Shown here piece after piece: positions 1,038 to 56,363 of a stretch of 64,000 nucleotides of DNA. The translations under genes were made by a program, and so were the position numbers. The DNA is from Scyliorhinus canicula. Lineage: Eukaryota. Location of the stretch: the NCBI RefSeq assembly GCF_902713615.1, contig NC_052158.1:20518546-20582545 (forward strand), written 5' to 3'. The notes under the pieces were generated by a model, which was given only the letters and a program-made list of their open reading frames with translations, was not told the DNA's origin and ran no database searches. Every line of letters starts with the position of its first letter. The first letter of the stretch is position 1.

Positions 1038-1921
1038 GGGCGGCACAGTAGCACAGTGGTTAGCACTATTGCTTGACAGCGCCAGGGTCCCAGGTTCAAT
1101 TCCCGGCTTGGATCACTGTCTGTGCAGAGTCTGCACGTTCTCCCCGTGTCTGCGTGGGCTTCCTCCGGGTGTTCCGGTTTCCTCCCTCTAATCCCGAAAG
1201 ACGTGCTGCTGGGTAATTTGGACATTCTGAATTCTCTCTGTGTCCCTGAACAGGCGCCGGACTGTGGCAACTCGGGGCTTTTCACAGTGGCGTCATTGCA
1301 CTGTTAATGAAAGCTGTCATGTGAGAGTACCTTTAAGAAATGGATGTTTAAGCAATGCACCTTTAAGAAATGGAGCAGCACATATTACTGAAGTGATGTC
1401 AGAGGGTTGGGTGAGCTGAGCTGAGCTCACTTCTGTTTTTGGTTTCAGTTTTGAGGAAAAGAGCTTGGGTGTGTCTGTGTTTGCAGTGAGCTGGATCTGC
1501 TGTGATCTCTGCCATGAAAGACTATCTCTGAATCATTTGGGTGATTTAAACTCGTAATAGTAATGTCTTTAACCTGATGTGTTTCTGTTTAAAGGTGTTA
1601 AGTCTCTTGGATGTTTAAAGGAAAAACGGAAGGATTATTTAGTGTTGTATTATTTTCGGGCTTATCTTTGAAGTAAGGGGTGTTAAGTGATCCAATGTTT
1701 ATTGAAAAGGTTAAGTTGAGTTAATGGAATAAACATTGCTTTGTGTTTAAAAACCCACGTGTCCATAATTATAATACCACACCTGGAGAACAAGCCGTGT
1801 GCTTCAAAAAAAACCCAATACATTAAAGGGGGAGGTTGGTTGAACTCCATGATACATTTTGGCGTTCTGAAAACGCCTCTCCCATAACAAAGCCTATTTG
1901 TGACAATAAAGATTATTATTA
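1038..1921 (+). mobile_element. HE1-head SINE with alternative tail, interrupted by a solo LTR
   Basis: Head at 1038; tail ...GTTAATGAAAGC resumes as AAGCCTATTTGTGACAATAAAGATTATTATT after the LTR. Confidence 0.85.
1315..1889. mobile_element. Solo LTR with 4-bp TSD AAGC
   Basis: TGTCATG...CATAACA imperfect inverted termini; AAGC at 1311-1314 and 1890-1893; splits a SINE tail. Confidence 0.85.
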
Positions 1922-2264
1922 AAAACCACATTTCCTTATCACTTCTCTTTTCCCATTTATTATTTTCACCATTTCCTAAAGTCACTATTGATCCTGATGT
2001 TGGACTTTTAAAGGGTTGTGATCACTATCACTGAGAAGTTCTTCCATTCCCTATCTGTTTGGCATCATTGTTCATGCCAAGACCAAGAACACAGCTTTTC
2101 CTCAGAATGGCAGCGATGAGGAAAGGTCTTTGAGTTGAAACATGTTTCTCCCTCCACAGATGCTGCCTGACCCACTGAGTGTTCCCAGCACTTCTTGTTT
2201 TAATTCTGCAGCATTTTGCTTTTGTTTTAGTGATTCTTTCCTTGAATTTCAGATGTACTGAGTT

Positions 2265-2610
2265 AGAATTCATAGAATTTACAGTGCAGAAGGAGGCCAT
2301 TCGGCCCATCGAGTCTGCACCGGCTCTTGGAATGAGCTCCCTACCCAAGCCCATACCTCCACCCTATCGCCATAACCCAGTAACCCCACCTAACACTAAG
2401 GGCAATTTGGACCCTGAGGGCAATTTAGCCTGGCCAATTCACCTAACCTGCACATCTTTGGACTGTGGGAGGAAACCGGAGCACCCGGAGGAAACCCACG
2501 CAGACATGGGGAGAACGTGCAGACTCCACACAGACCCAAGCCGGGATTCGAACCTGAGACTCTGGAGCTGTGAAGCATTTTGTGCTAACCACTATGCTAC
2601 CGTGCTGCCC
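2265..2610 (-). mobile_element. HE1-type V-SINE
   Basis: Reverse complement of head (GCTACCGTGCTGCCC) and tail (ATAGAATTTACAGTGCAGAAGG). Confidence 0.9.
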
Positions 2611-2733
2611 TAGAAAGGAGTCTTGTCTATGGTGTTATTACAGAACCAGACCAGACCCCAACTTGTATTGCAAACCAGACGTGGAACCCCAACAATTTTT
2701 CAATTTGTCAACGGTGCGGAAAGGATACTTGTA

Positions 2734-2835
2734 AATGAAATGAAATGAAAATCGCTTATTGTCATGAGTAGGCTTCAATGAAGATACTGTGAAAAGCCCC
2801 TAGTCGCCACATTCCGGCGCCTGTCCGGGGAGGCT
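2734..2835 (-). mobile_element. Short tRNA-head SINE family 2, 5'-truncated
   Basis: (AAATG)n tail plus AAAATCGCTTATTGTCA...CCACATTCCGGCGCCTG, shared with 7 other copies. Confidence 0.8.
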
Positions 2836-3140
2836 TTGCTCCAGAATGATTCCAGTGACAAATAGGGATCTTTTATGTTTAAAACAAATTTATTATCAAC
2901 ACAGGAGTAACCACATTAACATCAGAGAGAAATAGTTCTCCAATTAAAGTTAAGTTAACATTAAGTTCTTAAAAAAAAAACAGGGAAACACTTTAACTAC
3001 TACCGTTTTCCTCTGTTTCCAACTGAGCAATGTTTTAGCAAAGTAGCAGATCAAAAGCCACCGATAAATCAAGTGAGAAAACTAACAAGTTTTTTATTTT
3101 TATTTTTCAGTAGTTGGGAAGTTAGTTCAGTGGGAATGGA

Positions 3141-3460
3141 GGGGGCCTCACGGTAGCATGGTGGTTAGCATCAATGCTTCACAGCTCCAGGGTCCCAGGT
3201 TTGATTCCCGGCTGGGTCACTGTCTGTGTGGAGTCTGCACGTCCTCCCCGTGTGTGCGTGGGTTTCCTCCGGGTGCTCCGGTTTCCTCCCACAGTCCTAA
3301 GATGTGCGGGTTAGGTGGATTGGCCATGCTAAATTGCCCGTAGTGTAAGGTTAATGGGGGGATTGTTGGGTTACGGGTTACGTGGGTTTAAGTAGGGTGA
3401 TCATTGCTCGGCACAACATCGAGGGCCGAAGGGCCTGTTCTGTACTGTTCTATTCTTCTA
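3141..3460 (+). mobile_element. HE1-type V-SINE
   Basis: Full head and core; GGGCCGAAGGGCCTGTTCTGTACTG tail. Confidence 0.9.
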
Positions 3461-3654
3461 TAAAAAATCACAGGAACCTTGCTGTATTATTTTGTAGAGA
3501 TTTATTTTTAGAAATGGAGAGAGAAACCCTTTCGGGTACAGCCTGCAAATCCTTCTGTCTCTGTTCGGCTAAAAACATGAAAACTGCTTGCTACACACAT
3601 GGCCCCTCCCGTTAATTACATCATCTCTACCACACTAATTGTCTCATGACCACC

Positions 3655-3886
3655 TTTAAAAAAAAATAAAAATTTAGAGTACCCAATATATTTTTTCCCA
3701 ATGAAGGGACAATTTAGCGTGGCCAATCCAACTAGCCTGCGCATCTTTGGGTTGTGGAGGTCAAACCCACGCAAACACGGGGAGAATGTGCAAACTCCAC
3801 ACGGGCAGTGACCCAGAGCTGGGATCAAATCTGGGATTTCAGTGCCTGAAGGCAGCAGTGCTAACCACTGTGCCACCTTTCTGCCC
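3655..3886 (-). mobile_element. HE1-type SINE, short A-tail subfamily
   Basis: Reverse-complement head and core; AATTTAGAGTACCCAAT tail. Confidence 0.85.
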
Positions 3887-3931
3887 TTCTCATGACCATT
3901 TTAACAAAGGCTAAATACAATGTAGAATTAA

Positions 3932-4275
3932 AGAATCATAGAATTTACAGTGCAGAAGGAGGCTATTCGGCCCATCGAGTCTGCACCAGCCCTTACAAAG
4001 AGCACCCGACTCAAGCCCACATATCTACCCGATCCCCATAACCCAGTAACCCCCACCTAACCTTTTTCCGGACACTAAGGGCAATTTAGCATAGCCAATC
4101 CACCTAACCTGCAAATCTTTGGACTGTGGGAGGAAACCGGAGCACCCAAAGGAAACCCACGCAGACATGGGGAGAACATGCAGACTCCGCACAAACTGTA
4201 ACCCAGCCGGGAATCGAACCTGGGATTCCGGACCTGTGAAACAACTGTGCTAACCACTATGCTACCGTGCTGCCC
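3932..4275 (-). mobile_element. HE1-type V-SINE
   Basis: Reverse-complement head, core and tail. Confidence 0.9.
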
Positions 4276-4289
4276 TGTCAACACAATCC

Positions 4290-4640
4290 TTGAATCTCTC
4301 ATGCAGGGCACGGGCAGGGTGGATCGGGAACAGCTGTTCCCCTTAGTTAAAGGGTCAGTCACCAAGTTCAAGGTGAGGGACAGGGCGTTTGGTGGGGTGT
4401 GAGGAAATATATTTTTACCCAGAAGGTGGTGATAGCCTGAAATGCACTGCTTGGGAGGATCGTAGATGCAGATGGCCTCACATCCTTTAAAAAATACTCT
4501 GATGAGCACTTGTTATGTCACAACATTCAAGGCTGTGTGCCAAGTGCTGGCAAATAGGATTAGGTAGGTGTGTCAGGTGTTTTTCATTTGTCGGTACAGA
4601 CTCAATCAGCTAAAGGGCCTCTTCTGCGCTGCAGTATCTG
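4290..4640 (+). mobile_element. Degenerate CR1 LINE 3' end
   Basis: Resembles the 3' ends of other CR1 copies here (CCCAGAAGGTGGTG...GCCTGAAATGCACTG; AAGGGCCTCTTCTG). Confidence 0.55.
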
Positions 4641-18724: not shown

Positions 18725-19035
18725 AATGGTTGCATCTAGTAATCCAGAGGCCCAGACTCATGCTCTGGGAACTTGCATTCAAATCTCACCATGCCAGCTT
18801 GTGCAATTCAAATTCAAATAATTCAATCAAAATGGGGATTTGAAAGCTACAGTCTCAGTAATAGTGACCATCAACTATCACTGACACATCAACAGGCCAA
18901 TCACTGATTGTCACAATAACACAACTGGGTCACAGATGACCTTTAGGGAAGGTAATCTGTAATCTTTACCTGGTCTGGCCAACCTGTGACTCCAGACCCA
19001 TACCAGTGCAATTGACTCTTAACTGCTCTTGAGGC
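18725..19035 (+). mobile_element. DeuSINE (SacSINE1/AmnSINE1-like) copy
   Basis: AGTAATCCAGAGGCCCAG...CCTTTAGGGAAGG.AATCTG...CTGGTCTGGCC...GTGACTCCAGACCCA. Confidence 0.65.
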
Positions 19036-19182
19036 CTCCAACTGCAGGCCTTGTCCGTGACATCCCCATCCCCAGTGAACATAATGATCTGATTTGCTCT
19101 GGCAAGCCCAACCCTCAGGTCAGGCCACTGTGCATTAACGCTGCAGCACAACTACCAGCTGAGGTGCCTTCAGACACAGGTT

Positions 19183-19453
19183 TGAAGTGTCGGCTAGAGT
19201 AGACTTGAGAGATGAACAGACACTTCCAACACTGATGAAGGTTCAACTCAATTTTATTAACTAACTTCTAACTAACTAACACACGATGACTGTGGGTCTA
19301 AATGATGCTAACTTAAACTAGAGACCTCAGCCTTGTCCGAACCAGTTGATTCTCTCAGCACGTGGTGTGAGTCTGTGCTGGGATGGATGAGTTCTTGTGA
19401 CACTCAGAGGCAGCACCCAGAATGCCCTCTGCCTTTATAGTGTGTGTATTCTA
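19183..19453 (-). mobile_element. Inverted partial Gypsy LTR (LTR nt ~99-359)
   Basis: Reverse complement of 20130-20390 with 2 larger indels and about 6 small differences; starts exactly at the LTR 3' terminus. Confidence 0.95.
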
Positions 19454-19763
19454 CCCGATTCCGAAACGTGAGGAGCTCACGACCGAGATGGCCCACGCCA
19501 AACTCCTCTCAAAGTTGGATGCCTCGAAGGGTTTCTGGCAGATCCAATTAGATGAGTCAAGCAGGAAGCTGTGTACATTCAACACACCCTTTGGCAGGTT
19601 CTGCTACAACTGGATGCCATTCGGCATCATTTCTGCATCCGAAGATTTACATCGGATCATGGAGCAGATGATGGAGGGGATCGATGGCGTCCGGGTATAT
19701 GTCGACGGCATTATTATCTGGTCAACCAGGGTTCGTCGCCCACCTCAGAGACTGGATTTATGA
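19454..19763 (+). pseudogene. Gypsy RT segment fused to the integrase C-terminus
   Basis: YPIPKREE...KLDASKGFWQIQLDE...TFNTPFGRF...MPFG...VYVDGIIIWST followed directly by RVRRPPQRLDL*. Confidence 0.9.
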
Positions 19764-20031
19764 ACTCTGTACACATGTGGACTTTCTGAAATTTTTTTTA
19801 ATATATCCTTCAGTGTTGCATTCGTTCTCCAGTGATTTGTAAATAGTTTAGTTGGTTGTTCCAGTTCATGGTAGTCATCTGCACCAGGCACCTTCCTCTG
19901 TAAATAGTCTTGTTCCCTGTATTTTGCTTTGTACATATGTCTTCGCACCTCGTAGCTAGGTACATTCTCCACACATCCATTCTGTTTATTATCACATGCC
20001 TATATCAAATTTTTTTTAATAAAAGCGAGGA

Positions 20032-20390
20032 TGTCATAATATACACCAATATATCATGGTGCAGACACACACTGATGGACACACACAGGGACCAATCAAC
20101 ATGTACAAACACCGCAGCCAATCACCAGTTAGAATACACACACTATAAAGGCAGAGGGCACCACGGTTCCCGCTCATTCTGGGTGCTGCCTCTGAGTGTA
20201 ACAAGAACTCATCCAGCCCAGCACAGACTCGGTTCGGACAAGGCTGAGGTCTCTAGTTTAAATTAGCATCATTTAGACCCACAGTCATCGTGTGTTAGTT
20301 AGTTAGAAGTAGTTAATAAAATTGAGTTGAACCTTCATCAGTGTTGGAAGTGTCTGTTCATCTCTCAAGTCTACACTAGCCAACACTTCA
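20032..20390 (+). mobile_element. Gypsy LTR (359 bp, TG...CA)
   Basis: TGTCATAAT...ACACTTCA; TATAAA at ~20144; AATAAA; preceded by purine tract AAAAGCGAGGA and followed by a PBS. Confidence 0.9.
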
Positions 20391-20403
20391 TGGTACCAGG
20401 AGT
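20391..20403 (+). promoter_or_regulatory. Primer-binding site, tRNA-Leu(UAA)-like
   Basis: TGGTACCAGGAGT is complementary to the ...ACUCCUGGUACCA 3' end of vertebrate tRNA-Leu(UAA). Confidence 0.75.
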
Positions 20404-20475
20404 TGAGGGATGTCGCACTTCTGACACCTACCTTTCAGCGATCTGCCTTCCACCAGTCTCGCGCCATCCTACAGA

Positions 20476-22223
20476 ATGGACTCTGTTCGCCCGCCGCCGC
20501 CTCTCTGCATTGCCGGGAATCTAGGCTCGAACTGGAAACTTTTCAAACAGCGCTTCCAGCTGTACCTCGAGGCCAGGGACCTGGAAGCAGCCTCGGACGC
20601 ACGGAAGATTGCTCTCTTCCTCTTCACATCTGGGGACCACACTCTGCACATTTTCAACTCGCTCACCTTCGATGAGGGGGAGGGCAAATCAAAGTTCAAG
20701 ACCGTAATTCTAAAGTTCAACAGCCATTGCGCGGTCGAGGTCAATGAGAGCGTCGAGAGATACATGTTTCAGCAGCGAATTCAGGGTAAGGATGAGCCTT
20801 TCCAGTCCTTTATCATCCATCTCCGCATCCTTGCGCAGTCCTGCAACTACGGGTCCACCTCTGACTCCATGCTCCGTGACCAGATTGTTTTTGGTGTTCA
20901 ATCTGAGCCCCTGCGCCAGCAGCTACTAAAAGTAAAGCAGCTCACTCTCTCTACGGCCAATGGGACCTGTGCACTTCATGAACATGCCTCTACGCGCTAC
21001 TCCTGCATCCAGGCTGCTGAAACGGTACGGCAAGCCCCTTACGAGGCAGAACAGGCTAAAATGATTAAATCTTTTCAGGCTCTGGATCTGAACGATGGCG
21101 GCCATTTCACGCGCTTTTCGCGGAGTCCCGCGCTTACACGCAGCGAGCGTGCTGACGTCACAGACCGCTTCGCGCAGGTGTGCGCCTCGCTGGATCGCCC
21201 CGCGCATGCGCGGTGGCGCGATGAACGTCCCGACGCTCCGGCGTGCGGCAGCTGCAGCTCCGCCCACTTAAACGGCGATGTCCCGCGAAGTCCCGACACT
21301 GCCTGCAGTGTGGCAAACGAGGCCACTACGCTGCAATGTGCAGGTCTTCCATGCCTGCTGTTTTTAGGAGGTCCACCCAGCCCCACAAAGACGTCAGGGC
21401 TATCCAGCCTGCCATCAATGAACCTACTCCAGACCTTGCTTCCGACTGTGCCTGCGATGACCCACAGGTCCCGCTCCAAATTGGCTTAGTTACCATGAAC
21501 AGGATGTCCCCCAAGCGTGGCACCAAACCCGTCCACGTCCACAGTGTCGACCAGAATGATGAGTGGTGTGCCACCCTTAAGGTCAACCGGTCCCCTGCCA
21601 GGTTCCGCCTGGACACTGGCACTTCTGCCAATCTCATCGCGTTGTCTGATTTCCGCAAGCTCTGCGTACAGCCTGCTGTCCTGCCATCTGCGTGTAAATT
21701 GCTGGACTACAATGGCAATGCCATCACTGCCAGCGGCTCCTTCCGCCTTGAGGTGACACATCGTGCTCACACAGTCATTCTCCCGTTCGAGATTGTTGCT
21801 GCCTCAAAAGCCTCCTTGCTTGGTGCGCAGGCACGCCAGCTGCTCCACTTAGTGCAGAGAGTACACTCTCTCTCTTCAAGCGATGTGTCTGCATCCCCTG
21901 ACACAGACCTCAGAGCGCAACTCGACTCCATCATCCAGCAATACCATGATGTTTTCAAAGGCATGGGCACGCTCCCGTACACGTACAAAATCTTACTCAA
22001 GCCCAACGCCACGCCTGTCGTTCACGCACCTCACAGAGTCCCTGTGCCCCTTAAGGACCGCCTCCAGCAACAGCTCCAGGACCTCCAGGACCAAGGAGTC
22101 ATCTCTAGGGTCACGGAACCCACAGACTGGGTAAGCTCCATGGTCTGCGTCAAGAAACCGTCCGGCGAGTTCCATATCTGTATTGATCCGAAAGATCTGA
22201 ATCAGAATATCATGCGAATATGA
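20476..22223 (+). pseudogene. Gypsy gag-protease-RT N-terminus, one frameshift at ~21270, truncated
   Basis: Gag (NWKLFKQRFQLYL...LRDQIVFG), CCHC knuckle CLQCGKRGHYAAMC, protease LDTGTSANLI, RT start WVSSMVCVKKPSG...CIDPKDLN. Confidence 0.92.
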
Positions 22224-22727
22224 TAAGGTTGCTCTTCAACATTGCAATGGTGTGTGCTCAGGTTACTGAATAACCCCTCAGCAAGGCTGAGGATTACAGT
22301 GGTGCTAAGGCCCAGCCAGTACTGAGGCATGCAACTTTGAACAAATAGCAGCCGCTGACATTGGTCAGCACTGCCTTATCTCTCTGTCTTTTATCCTGGC
22401 AAGATGACCAATCCTTTTTTGTCCAACTAAGGGGTCCAGGTGCATAATTTGCCCTGTGCAAACAGTGAATCCCATGCACAAGCTGTGCTACACTTTACTG
22501 ACCCCAGTTTACATTGCACCCTTCAGGTTTATCACCCTGAACATGTTACGAATGCGACATTTGACACGAACCAAAGCAAAATACTGTGGCTGCTGTAGCA
22601 GAAATAAAGAGGTCAGGCAACATCTATAGAGAGAGAAAAACGAAGCGAATGTTTCAGGTTGATGATCTTTTATCAGAACTGGGACAAATAAATTACATTG
22701 CAGTTAATTAGGCTGGGACAGAGAATC

Positions 22728-25247: not shown

Positions 25248-26735
25248 CTATAAGATCCCCCCCATCCTTCTCAATTCCAATGAGTACAGTCCCAGTCTAC
25301 TCAACCTCTCCTCGTAATCCAACCCCTTCAGCTCTGGGATTAACCTAGTGAATCTCCTCTGCACACCCTCCAGCGCCAGTACGTCCTTTCTCAAGTAAGG
25401 AGACCAAAACTGAACACAATACTCCAGGTGTGGCCTCACTAACACCTTATACAATTGCAGCATAACCTCCCTAGTCTTAAACTCCATCCCTCTAGCAATG
25501 AAGGACAAAATTCCATTTGCCTTCTTAATCACCTGTTGCACCTGTAAACCAACTTTCTGCGACTCATGCACTAGCACACCCAGGTCTCTCTGCGCAGTGG
25601 CATGCTTTAATATTTTATCATTTAAATAATAATCCATTTTGCTGTTATTCCTACCAAAATGGATAACCTCACATTTGTCAACATTGTATTCCATCTGCCA
25701 GACCCTAGCCCATTCACTTAAACTGTCCAAATCCCTCTGCAGTCTTCCAGTATCTTCTGCACTTTTCGCTTTACCAATCATCTTAGTGTCATCTGCAAAC
25801 TTGGACACATTGCTCTTGGTCCCCAACTCCAAATCATCTATGTAAATTGTGAACAATTGTGGGCCCAACACTGATCCCTGAGGGACATCATGAGCTACTG
25901 ATTGCCAACCAGAGAAACACCCATTAATCCCCACTCTTTGCTTTCTATTAATTAACCAATCCTCTATCCATGCTACTACTTTACCCTTAATGCCATGCTT
26001 CTTTATCTTATGCAGCAACCTTTTGTGTGGCACCTTGTCAAAGGCTTTCTGGAAATCCTGATATACCACATCCATTGGTTCCCCGTTATCTACCGCACTG
26101 GTAATGTCCTCAAAAAATTCCACTCAATTAGTTAGGCACGACCTTCCCTTTATGAACCCATGCTGCGTCTGCCCAATGGGACAATTTCTATCCAGATGCC
26201 TCGCTATTTCTTCCTTGATGATAGATTCCAGCATCTTCCCTACTACTGAAGTTACGCTCACTGGCCTATAATTACCCGCTCTCTGCCTACCTCCTTTTTT
26301 AAACAGCGGTGTCACGTTTGCTAATTTCCAATCCGCCGGGACCACCCCAGAGTCTTGTGAATTTTGGTAAATTATAACTCGTGCATTTGAAATTTCCCTA
26401 GCCATCTCCTTTAGCACTCTGGGATGCATTCCATCAGGGCCAGGAGACTTGTCTACATTTAGCCCCGTTAGCTTGCCCATCACTACCTCCTTAGTGATAA
26501 CAATCCTCTCAAGGTCCTCACCTGTCATAGCCTCATTTCTATCAGTCGCTGGCATGTTATTTGTGTCTTCCACTGTGAAGACCGACCCAAAAAACCTGTT
26601 CAGTTCCTCAGCCATTTCCTCATCTCCCATTATTAAAACTCCCTTCACATCCTGACCAATATTTACCTTAGCCACTCTTTTTTGTTTTATATATTTGTAG
26701 AAACTTTTACTGTCTGTTTTTATATTCTGAGCAAG
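25248..26735 (-). pseudogene. CR1 ORF2 reverse transcriptase, one premature stop
   Basis: [40 protein letters not shown] motifs. Confidence 0.93.
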
Positions 26736-27377
26736 GACGTGTGACTGGAAGCAACAGGCCAAGTGACACCCAGCACCTGCTGACTGATTTTAAAAAAGGA
26801 AGCAGTGAATCTGATCTGAAATCGTTGAGCTCAACGTGGAGCTTTGAAAGGTTGTGAAGTGTTGAAATGAAAATGAGATGTTGATCTCTGAGCAAGTGTC
26901 AAAGCTGTTCTACAGTGCTATGCAAGTGCTAAATGGTATTGATGCCAGCTTATATTGCTCGTATTAGGTTTCTCACCCCAAACATGTTATGAATGTGACA
27001 TTTAACTTGAAGTAAATGAAACTACTGTGGCTGCTGTAGCAGAAATAAAGGGGTCAGGCAAGATCTATACAGAGAGAGAAAAATTGAGTTAATGGTTCAC
27101 GCTTGTTCTTTTCTGTTGCGCTTCATCGGAGCAGTGTAGAAAGACGAGGACAGAGAGGTCAGAGTGGGAGTGGGACAGAAACTTTTAGAGACAATAATCC
27201 AGAACAAAATTCATTATCACTTGGGGGGAAAGTATTTTAATAAATAGTAACCAACATGGATTTGTGAAATACACATTGTGTTTGGCGAACCTGATTGGGT
27301 TATCGATGAAATAGCACAGGTGACTGATGTGTTTGCTGTTGTATATACGAATTTACAATGTACACAGCGTGGAAATA

Positions 27378-43644: not shown

Positions 43645-46255
43645 GAAAGAAAACATAGACCATAGAGCATAGAACTGTGCAGCACTGTACAGGCCCTTCG
43701 GCCCACGATGTTGTGCCGAACTAGTCTGAAACTAAGATCAAATCAACCTACTCCCAATCATTCTCGTGCACTCCATATGCCTATCCAATTGAAAGTTCCT
43801 AAAGTGTCCATTTCCACTACCATAGCTGGGAGTGTGTTCCATGCCCCAACCACTCTCTGAGTAAAGAACCTACCTCTGACATCCCTCCTGTATCTACCAT
43901 GAACCTTATAGTTATGCCCCCTTCTAACAGCTACATCCACCCGAGGAATAAGTCGCTGAACGTCGACTCTATCTATCTCTCTCATTATCTGATACACCTC
44001 AATTAAGTCACCTCTCATCCTCCTTTGCTCCAATGAGATAGCCCTAGCTCCCTCAACCTTTCCTCATAAGACCTACCCTCCAATCCAGGCAGCATCTTGG
44101 TAAATCTCCTTTGCATCCTTTCCAATGCTTCCACATCCTTCCTATAATGAGGTGACCAGAACTGCACACAATACTCCAAACATGGTCCAACCAAACTCTT
44201 GTACAGTTGCAGCACAACCTCACTGCTCTTAAACTCAATCCCCCTGTTAATAAATGCTAACACACTATAGGCTTTCTTCACGGCTCGATCCACTTGGGTG
44301 GCAACTTTCAGAGATCTATGGACATGAACTCTGAAATCTCTTTGCTCCTCCACATTCTTCAGAACCCTGCCGTTACCCCTGTAATCCGCTTTCAAATTTG
44401 TCCTACCAAAATGAATCACCTCACACTTACCAGGGTTAAACTCCATCTGCCACTTTTCAGTCCAGCTCTGCATCCCATCAATGTCTCTTTGCAGCCTAGA
44501 ACAGCCCTCACATTATCCACTACTCCACCAATCTTGGTGTCATCAGCAAATTTACTAACCCAACCTTCAACTCCATCATCCAAGTCATTGATAAAAATCA
44601 CAAATAGCAGAGGACCCAGCACTGATCCCTGTGGTACACCGCTGGTGACTGGGCTCCAGGATGAAAATTTACCATCTACCACCATCCTCTGTCCTCTATG
44701 TGATAGCCAGTTACTGATCCAATCAGCCAAATTTCTCACTATGCCATGCCTCCTTACTTTCTGCATGAGCCGACCATGGGGCACCTTATCAAACGCCTCA
44801 CTAAAATCTATGTATACAACATCAACTGCTCTACCTTCATCTATGTACTTAGTTACCTCCTCAAAGAATACAATCAAACTTGTGAGGCAAGTCTTACCCC
44901 TCACAAATCCGTGCTGACTATCCTGGATTAAGCTGTATCTTTCCAAATGATCATAAATCCTATCCCTCAGGACCCTTTCCAATAATTTACCTACGACCGA
45001 AGTGAGACTAACTGGCCTATAATTCCCAGGGTTATACCTATTTCCTTTCTTGAACAAGGGGACAACATTCACCTCTCCAGTCTTCTGGCACTATTCCAGT
45101 AGATGTGAGGACATAAAGATCAAAGCCAAAGGCTCTGCAATCTCATCCCTCGCCTCCCAAGGAATCCTCGGATATATCCCATCAGGCCCAGGGGACTTAT
45201 CTATCCTCAGGCTTCTCAAAATTTCTAACATATCTTCCTTCCGAATATCTACCTCCTCCATCCTACGAGCCTGTATCGCACTATCCTCCTCAACAACATG
45301 GCCCCTCTCCTTTGTGAACACTGAAGAAAAGTATTCATTTAGGGCCTCTCCTATATCTTCAGACTCCATGCAGACGTTCCCACTATTGTCCTTGACCGGC
45401 CCTAACTTCACCTTGGTCATTTTTTTATTCCTCACAGAAATGTAAAAAGCCTTGGGGTTTTCCTTGATCCTACTGTCAAGGACTTCTCATGCCCCTCCGG
45501 AGCTCTCCGAAGCCCTTTCCTGAGCTCCTTCCTAGCTATCTTGTATCCCTCAAGTGCCCTAACTGAGCCTTGTTTTCTCATCCTTACATAAGCCCCCTTC
45601 TTCCTCTTGAAAAGACATTCAACCTCTTTTGTAAACATGGTTCCCTCAGTCGATCATTTCCTCCCTGCCTGACAGGGACATACATTTCAAGGACATGCAG
45701 TATTTGCTCCTTGAACAAGCTCCACATCTCAATTGTGCCTATCCCTGACAGTTCCTGTTTCCATCTTATGCTCTTGAATTCTTGCCTAATCGCAATGTAA
45801 TTACCCTTCCCCCAGTTATAAACCTTGCCCTGCCATATGTGCCTATCCCTCTTCATTGCTATTGTGAAAGTCACTGAATTGTGGGCACTATCTCCAAAGT
45901 GTTCTCTCACAACCAAATCTAACACTTGGCCTGGTTCATTACCCAGTACCAAATCCAATGTGGCCCCCCTCTTGTCGGTCTATCCACATATGGTGTGAGG
46001 AAACCTTCCTGCACACACTTGATAAAAACAGCCCCATCCAAACTATTCGAATTATAGTGGTTCCAATCAATATTTGGAAAGTTAAAGTCACCCATGACAA
46101 CTGCCCTGTGACGACCTCACCTATCCAAAATCTGTTTGCAATCTTTTCCTCCACATCTCTGTTACTGTTTGGGGGCCTATAGAAAACTCCTAACAAAGTG
46201 ACCGCTCCTTTCCTATTTCTAACTTCAGCCCACACTACCTCGTAGACAGATCTTC
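43645..46255 (-). mobile_element. CR1 LINE ORF2 (endonuclease C-part plus RT), frameshifted
   Basis: [54 protein letters not shown]. Confidence 0.93.
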
Positions 46256-55680: not shown

Positions 55681-55810
55681 CCTGACATTCACACTGTCCA
55701 GCAGATGTTTCTTTCCCAGTAAAATGTCTTCAGATGTTTTGTAATTTCAAAATTTGTAACTTTAAACTGTTCCTTTCCGAAGCTAATTCCTTTGTTCTGT
55801 GTTGTTGCAG

Positions 55811-56203
55811 CCTCGGGAATCGGGGTTACTGTGAGGGTCCATCAGAGAGAAGTGATGGGGACAGTGGACCAGTCTGTCCTTCTCCCTGTCTCCTATTCCA
55901 CACTCACACCCGGCTCCAATTTACAGATACAGTGGGGTTTATTCCCCGGAGACACTCCATTTGTGAGACTGGCCCGATCAAACTGCTCTCCAGACCCTGA
56001 CAGATCCGGTTATAACTGTTCAGATCACCGGGTGGCAGCTCCTTCCTACCGGGACCGAGTTCACCTCTACCCAGAGAATGGATCCTTGTTACTGTGGGAT
56101 TTACAGCCCAGTGACAGCGGGGTCTATGGGATATATGTTTATAGTGATGGTGGCAGCACAGGCTGGACAGGCAATGTGACTTTAACCGTCTATAACAAGA
56201 CAG
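55811..56203 (+). CDS. Ig-receptor copy 1 exon 2: V-type Ig domain, CD2/SLAM/CEACAM/HEPACAM/VSTM5-like
   Basis: TGCAG| acceptor and |GTAAG donor, 393 nt, phase 1-1; SVLLPVSY, IQW, RDRVHLYPENGSLLLWDLQPSDSGVY, VTLTV. Confidence 0.9.
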
Positions 56204-56363
56204 GTAAGAATTCACAATCTCTTTATCCAATTATTCCTCGGTGCGTTTTGCTAACATCGTAAGTTCTCACTGCAAACTGAATCAAACAATGATGATAAAG
56301 AATGATTGAGGTTATCCTTTCTATCCAATGGGCTTGTTGTAAGTGTCTGAATTCTTCTTCCAG

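Follow-up and report, generated by a model that had tools for sequence, protein, structure and literature searches.

The window, a 64,000-nt stretch of Scyliorhinus canicula DNA, carries at 19178..22230 a rearranged Gypsy retrotransposon copy between two copies of the pentanucleotide AGGTT. As read from the sequence, a repeat scan and the reading frames, the order of parts between these repeats is a reversed 3' part of the long terminal repeat (LTR), the second half of the element, a whole LTR, the first half of the element, and a reversed LTR start of 7 nt. The left AGGTT (19178..19182), recognized from the sequence and from a one-copy empty site in a related species (organism C), is followed on the minus strand by the LTR 3' part (19183..19453; ruler positions 99-384), delimited by repeat scan, LTR alignment and mapping of siblings. 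This piece comprises the end of U3 with its TATA, R, and U5 down to the terminal CA, is oriented toward the host flank, and contains a 16-nt deletion. At new junction 1 (19451..19453), defined by sibling comparison, the reversed LTR shares a 3-nt microhomology with the second reverse transcriptase (RT) piece, which extends on the plus strand from YPIP through the catalytic motif region (19451..19728; Pfam RVT_1, E 1.1e-11; ruler 2218-2494). The last 9 nt of this piece (19720..19728, plus strand) are the microhomology at the junction of a 2.1-kb RT-RNase H-integrase deletion common to siblings (38 loci), and from there reading frames and sibling comparison place the C-terminal tip of integrase, its stop codon (19761-63), the 3' UTR and the polypurine tract (PPT; 19720..20031, plus strand). 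The sole complete LTR, also delimited by sibling comparison (20032..20390, plus strand), runs from TG to CA between the PPT and the primer binding site (PBS), and its 359 nt reflect a 25-nt deletion relative to the ~384 nt found in siblings. The PBS (20391..20403, plus strand) is the complement of the 3' end of tRNA-Leu(TAA), matched by a tRNA-Leu(TAA) gene in the same genome. Next on the plus strand come gag, protease and the first RT piece, ending in NIMR (20477..22216; reading frames and sibling comparison); gag is frameshifted near 21270-21290, and the zf-CCHC and protease Pfam matches within this region are both under the curated cut-off. New junction 2 (22217..22225, minus strand), bridged by run X1, consists of 2 inserted nt and a 7-nt remnant of the LTR start (6/7 match), and the right AGGTT (22226..22230), read from the sequence, has C as its first base in run X1.

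Read on the minus strand, the copy is LTR(1-7), reversed first half, reversed LTR, reversed second half and LTR(99-end). Its LTR content equals two LTRs less 91 nt, with LTR positions 8-98 present once. An earlier note on this DNA had described a permuted one-LTR body within oppositely oriented LTR ends, holding about two LTRs in total; every part that it named was found where it had been placed, and the LTR total agrees. The note had also claimed that the two RT pieces are adjacent in pol. They are consecutive, 6 nt apart, in 20/20 siblings, and the non-adjacency that would have spoken against the claim was not seen in them; the end of the first piece must be moved from 22217 to 22216, and the loss is 6 nt (6-9 given the 3-nt microhomology) rather than about 5. 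The resemblance to an LTR start that the note saw at the right end is likewise present, but is best read as 7 nt plus the 2 inserted. None of the three outcomes that the note had set out as refuting its reading was found, and the rearranged copy is confirmed as a real structure.

The 5-bp AGGTT repeat is a true target-site duplication (TSD). In organism C, letters 24-246 of a 451-nt contig (depth 9.42, minus strand) align to 22226-22448 with 15 differences, and letters 242-451 of a contig of equal length, depth and strand align to 18973-19182 with 14 differences; judging from this equality, both rows probably represent one record. Since the two flank alignments share exactly 5 letters, organism C has the empty site with one AGGTT copy, which bears out the 5-bp TSD proposed earlier. 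A paralogous empty site was unusable as a control because both flanks of the copy are single-copy in the genome, and the organism C orthologue was used in its place. Among siblings, the 5-bp TSDs were exact in 27/41, had one mismatch in 11/41, and had at least 3 mismatches, i.e., were unrelated, in 3/41. In run X10, which concerns organism C, no contig was found over most LTR bins of window positions 19186-19295 at 88% likeness, which would fit, as weak evidence, a burst of the family after the species split.

The right junction is bridged by run X1 (22161-22670), with 11 differences in 510 letters and 56 letters on the RT side; considering these differing letters, X1 represents another haplotype or individual. 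Run X8 (22194-22330, 0 differing letters) bridges only the boundary between element and flank under the 31-letter rule, and run X3 (293/293 match) was left out of the count as it may be the source of the assembly. The left junctions (19183 and 19451) rest on the assembly: no bridging contig was present among the matches listed from four runs, which leave out 6639 pieces, and X1, X3, and X8 were without cover at 19032-19163.

The copy is a derivative of a Ty3/Gypsy (Metaviridae) LTR retrotransposon, rearranged and not a canonical provirus. Like a canonical Ty3/Gypsy element, it has TG...CA LTRs, a tRNA-Leu PBS, a PPT, and a 5-bp TSD; its gag-pol is ~91-93% like that of siblings, and the pol order protease-RT-RNase H-integrase was met in sibling L014 by Pfam. 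It departs from the canonical form in having a body permuted at RT and outer LTR ends that point the opposite way to that body; a single LTR is complete, and no direct LTR pair encloses a colinear body. The RT piece matches 2968 candidate places across the 4.2-Gb genome. The 2.1-kb deletion (junction 19720-19728), which the earlier note had not mentioned, took RNase H from the body, together with the end of RT and almost all of integrase. Its junction is spanned by all 39 non-self places that were scored out of 1854 candidates, and 38/38 sibling loci with the deletion map identically. Since the deletion is common to these 38 loci, the parent was already non-autonomous, an ordinary form of this kind before rearrangement. 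No alleles were found that separate the deletion class from full-length copies or mark the closest sibling. Two siblings, L086 and L089, show another class of deletion (ruler 1585 to 4571), which stops at almost the same integrase-end microhomology as the 2.1-kb class, and L086 has PBS-like letters after its 3' LTR. Two separate copies contain a 28-bp minisatellite grown out of the integrase region (ruler 4082-4135): L103:4953-8000, where it exceeds 100 units, and L108:3451-4515. Elsewhere, a 126-nt RT piece is templated into gag-pro (L017:2298-2431), and an inverted 100-nt gag piece lies at a 5'-truncated end (L053:3496-3595).

The two LTR arms (19183-19453 and 20130-20390) have 5 differences in 245 shared columns, plus indels of 16, 25, and 1 nt. 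Both carry a base that is absent from 28 other aligned LTRs at that column. In its exact context this allele occurs at 15 places genome-wide, two of which are in this copy, versus 1468 places with another base, i.e., a frequency of 0.9% among other LTR places. In ordinary sibling pairs a rare allele is common to both LTRs in 21 of 37, and by this measure the pair behaves like two LTRs of one insertion. These comparisons point to descent of both LTR pieces from one parent provirus. The pair has diverged by 2.0%, a value as low as which was found in 1/37 sibling pairs (mean 4.8%, sd 1.6%). Late homogenization of the pair was considered and rejected: the two LTRs have just one rare allele in common, and rare alleles in the internal sequence occur at an average rate (3.1% vs 2.9%). 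For the same two reasons, we draw no timing of the rearrangement.

Both new junctions are non-homologous: one has a 3-nt microhomology, and at the other 2 nt are inserted within a local repeat of 6 nt. At junction 1 the microhomology connects LTR position 99 to RT, with a probability by chance that we estimate at ~5%. At junction 2 nine letters match the reversed LTR start at 7/9. No LTR start with two differences was found among 103 (106 matched, of which 3 misregistered rows were dropped), and so 7 nt plus 2 inserted is preferred to a nine-nt remnant with two substitutions. The change at position 2 is present in 4/106 LTR starts, and the background of 6/7 matches to the LTR start is 143 in 121,880. 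Alternatively, the nine letters may be purely local templated filler. A 6-nt direct repeat (22204-09 and 22216-21) spans junction 2. Direct repeats across a join are the pattern of templated end joining, and this one may be a trace of it, as a modest signal.

As to the origin of the copy, we give about even credence to repair by host end joining of a double-strand break in RT, with each half flipped in place within its own LTR ends; the double inversion of one provirus, one branch of the earlier note's inference, is the best explanation here. A single, already internally deleted provirus would be cut once in RT, with 6 nt lost. The 5' half would then rejoin reversed at LTR position 7 and the 3' half, also reversed, at position 99; clustered breaks might have brought this about, or resection followed by fold-back priming. 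Annealing of the freed ends over the 91 nt of LTR carried by both could then yield the whole central LTR. The setting might be the chromosome, or fresh cDNA with integrase holding the ends. In favor of this repair are the integrase-type ends, the 5-bp TSD, the empty site, and the rare allele common to both LTR pieces. Also in its favor, the two RT ends lie so close together that, by our arithmetic, independent breakpoints would do so with a ~0.8% chance in ~2.4 kb of internal sequence. The model requires inverted orientation, an LTR that is not duplicated, and each half on its own LTR, and all three are seen. Siblings, moreover, frequently bear scars of post-insertion repair (deletions, templated pieces, tandem units, and solo LTRs).

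Fold-back inversions formed at breaks are documented in yeast, where homology, with single-strand annealing as one route, resolves them (PMC7467729). In that study the loops measure tens of nt, with a median of 35.5 nt when MRE11 and SAE2 are intact, and short stems work close to the break. The loops needed here would be ~0.7 and 2.2 kb on 3-nt homologies, and a literal one-break fold-back is therefore a stretch. The version with three breaks, in turn, requires clustered damage. A 7-nt LTR start beside an intact TSD would be a ~2% event under uniform breaks along the LTR, and so short a remnant hints that integrase protected the end and that the copy arose before integration. An unrearranged provirus at the site was not seen in any individual, and X1 and X8 both have the rearranged right end.

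Appreciably less probable than break repair, yet ahead of the other alternatives, is that a one-LTR circle of the same element, made by LTR-LTR recombination or by incomplete cDNA synthesis, was cut in RT and end-joined in reverse into a broken solo LTR or sister cDNA that kept its TSD. This route yields exactly the observed product and LTR count; the products of break repair and of circle recapture are identical and not separable by sequence alone. An active LTR element of Drosophila yields mainly one-LTR circles (bioRxiv 10.1101/2022.09.25.509424), and in the present family solo LTRs, three-LTR tandems (L038 and L089), and a permuted B-LTR-A fragment (L087) all occur. Against recapture, recombination and two more breaks would be needed, and the circle would have to meet an LTR of its own parent, considering the shared 0.9% allele. 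Direct-orientation twins, which recapture predicts, were found at 0/6 of the other exact PPT-LTR-PBS loci, a small and incomplete sample. The earlier note had offered a circle recombined into a sister LTR. The homologous version of that branch is dropped because both new junctions are of the end-joining type rather than LTR-to-LTR homology, and what remains of the branch is non-homologous capture. A one-LTR circle integrated by homology would leave a direct tandem with its crossover in the LTR, a product that L038 and L089 resemble; the present copy is inverted instead and has its junctions in RT.

Unlikely, and more so than recapture, is aberrant reverse transcription followed by normal integration. 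The plus-strand start (U3 1-7) would jump onto an RNA broken in RT, and copying would proceed via R-to-R transfer back to the break, closing on the minus strand at LTR position 99 and ending in a duplex with two integrase ends. Such a course needs no chromosomal breaks to account for the perfect TSD, the adjacency of the RT ends and a U3 remnant this short, and proviruses with inversions make up ~2% in HIV-1 (2.4% by one pipeline; PMC8264403) and 1.9% in HTLV-1c (PMC13427564). It would require two illegitimate jumps, two templates, and flap trimming, however, and host end joining explains the junction signatures no less well. For such defects the HTLV-1c study leans toward post-integration repair (PMC13427564). 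More doubtful again is a salvage route, in which a one-LTR circle or broken cDNA would be spliced before integration between LTR ends held by integrase, giving a normal TSD, a recurring class with very short U3 remnants, and in each such copy an LTR inverted repeat that could seed hairpin RNA directed at the element's own family.

An assembly error at the left or inner junctions, which the unbridged 19183 and 19451 among contigs listed from four runs would favor, is very improbable: on the left the LTR stops at its exact terminus, next to a TSD that agrees with the other species' empty site, the LTR pieces share a rare allele despite 5 substitutions and 3 indels, and the anomalous right end is bridged in the other haplotype. 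We give equally little credence to integrase autointegration, which yields deletion and inversion circles seen as permuted reads (PMC7197481), or to nested insertion of a sibling with recombination between inverted LTRs. Autointegration joins LTR termini to an internal site, whereas here the termini face the host TSD and the RT ends join LTR-internal positions 7 and 99 with 6 nt lost; recombination between inverted LTRs could not cut RT. Autointegration usually leaves a short duplication. A likely V-set exon lies 33 kb away in the window; RAG-type cutting was rejected, as no signal-like motif was visible by eye at the RT break.

The left junction is present at 1 place in the genome at up to 3 mismatches. 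The exact PPT-LTR-PBS pattern has 7 places, and the 6 others are direct tandems or fragments; this pattern is incomplete and missed at least L038 and L097. Exact patterns replaced similarity searches as the test of uniqueness, since the latter scored 40/763 and 40/3618 candidates and one missed the tandem in L038. The same architecture within a TSD was found in 0/114 mapped sibling loci (68 + 6 + 40), which were picked by likeness to this copy and on which the base rate rests. Mixed orientation was seen in 3/114 (L053, L097, and L105). No dispersed copies with the same junctions, as a new mobile element would have, were found. The copy is a one-off, dead and not amplified. In the literature within the scope of our search, which excluded most subscription journals, no description of this architecture was found.

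L105 (378-3952, reverse complement; G000:C1:79381925-79389924) holds a second, different inversion in the family, in which a reversed 3' LTR with PPT adjoins forward PBS-gag-pol, with 389 nt of other DNA between them; it was rejected as a second case because it has no matching TSD or outer LTR start. L088:2877-5717, with TSD GACTA, is an all-direct complex of LTR, part of gag, a deletion, 3' end, LTR, part of gag, and partial LTR. L087:3098-5491 is a permuted fragment of 3' half, LTR and gag start; it lacks outer LTR ends, as would a remnant of a tandem or one-LTR circle. L038 and L089 consist of tandem LTR-body-LTR-body-LTR units; in L038 one and the same later insertion is present in each unit, so that the duplication postdates insertion.

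Defective HIV-1 and HTLV-1c proviruses (PMC8264403, PMC13427564) are likewise integrated LTR elements with inverted internal parts, and short breakpoint microhomologies are reported for their deletions; no provirus with its two halves both inverted and joined through one central LTR appears in the passages covered, and their inversions were read from amplicons obtained by PCR with LTR primers, where no empty site served as control. One-LTR and autointegration circles (PMC7197481; bioRxiv 10.1101/2022.09.25.509424) share the PPT-LTR-PBS junction and circular permutation with the copy. They are extrachromosomal, however, and autointegrant termini face inward, whereas the copy sits in a chromosome, bounded by a TSD, and its termini face outward. 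Yeast foldback inversions (PMC7467729) resemble our proposal in being initiated by a break, using short homology and being stabilized by annealing, but have loops of tens of nt and duplicated flanks, while the copy would have loops of 0.7-2.2 kb, on both sides and with no duplication. Mu killer of maize is also a transposon derivative with an inverted repeat, and the ~250-bp stem of the copy could give hairpin RNA; Mu killer is transcribed into a perfect 2.4-kb hairpin that silences its family (PMC2563033), whereas the copy is known from DNA alone. The predicted fold of a 19183-20390 transcript has this stem and -625 kcal/mol, a value that carries no shuffle control.

Judging from its anatomy, the copy would be unable to transpose as a unit, since it lacks RNase H and integrase as well as the downstream R needed for strand transfer. 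It provides a clean, empty-site-controlled record of an LTR element rebuilt inside its own TSD, one that annotation tools expecting direct LTRs would likely split or miss. If copies with integrase-length U3 remnants proved to be a recurring class, one-LTR circles or broken cDNAs would re-enter the genome via integrase, and the class would be a built-in source of family-silencing hairpins. Elsewhere in the window, a plus-strand frame at 55723-56262 contains an immunoglobulin V-set domain (Pfam E 2.7e-8) and is likely an exon belonging to an Ig-superfamily gene, and minus-strand sequences at 25248-26789 and 44416-45090 are other reverse-transcriptase remnants, likely from LINEs.
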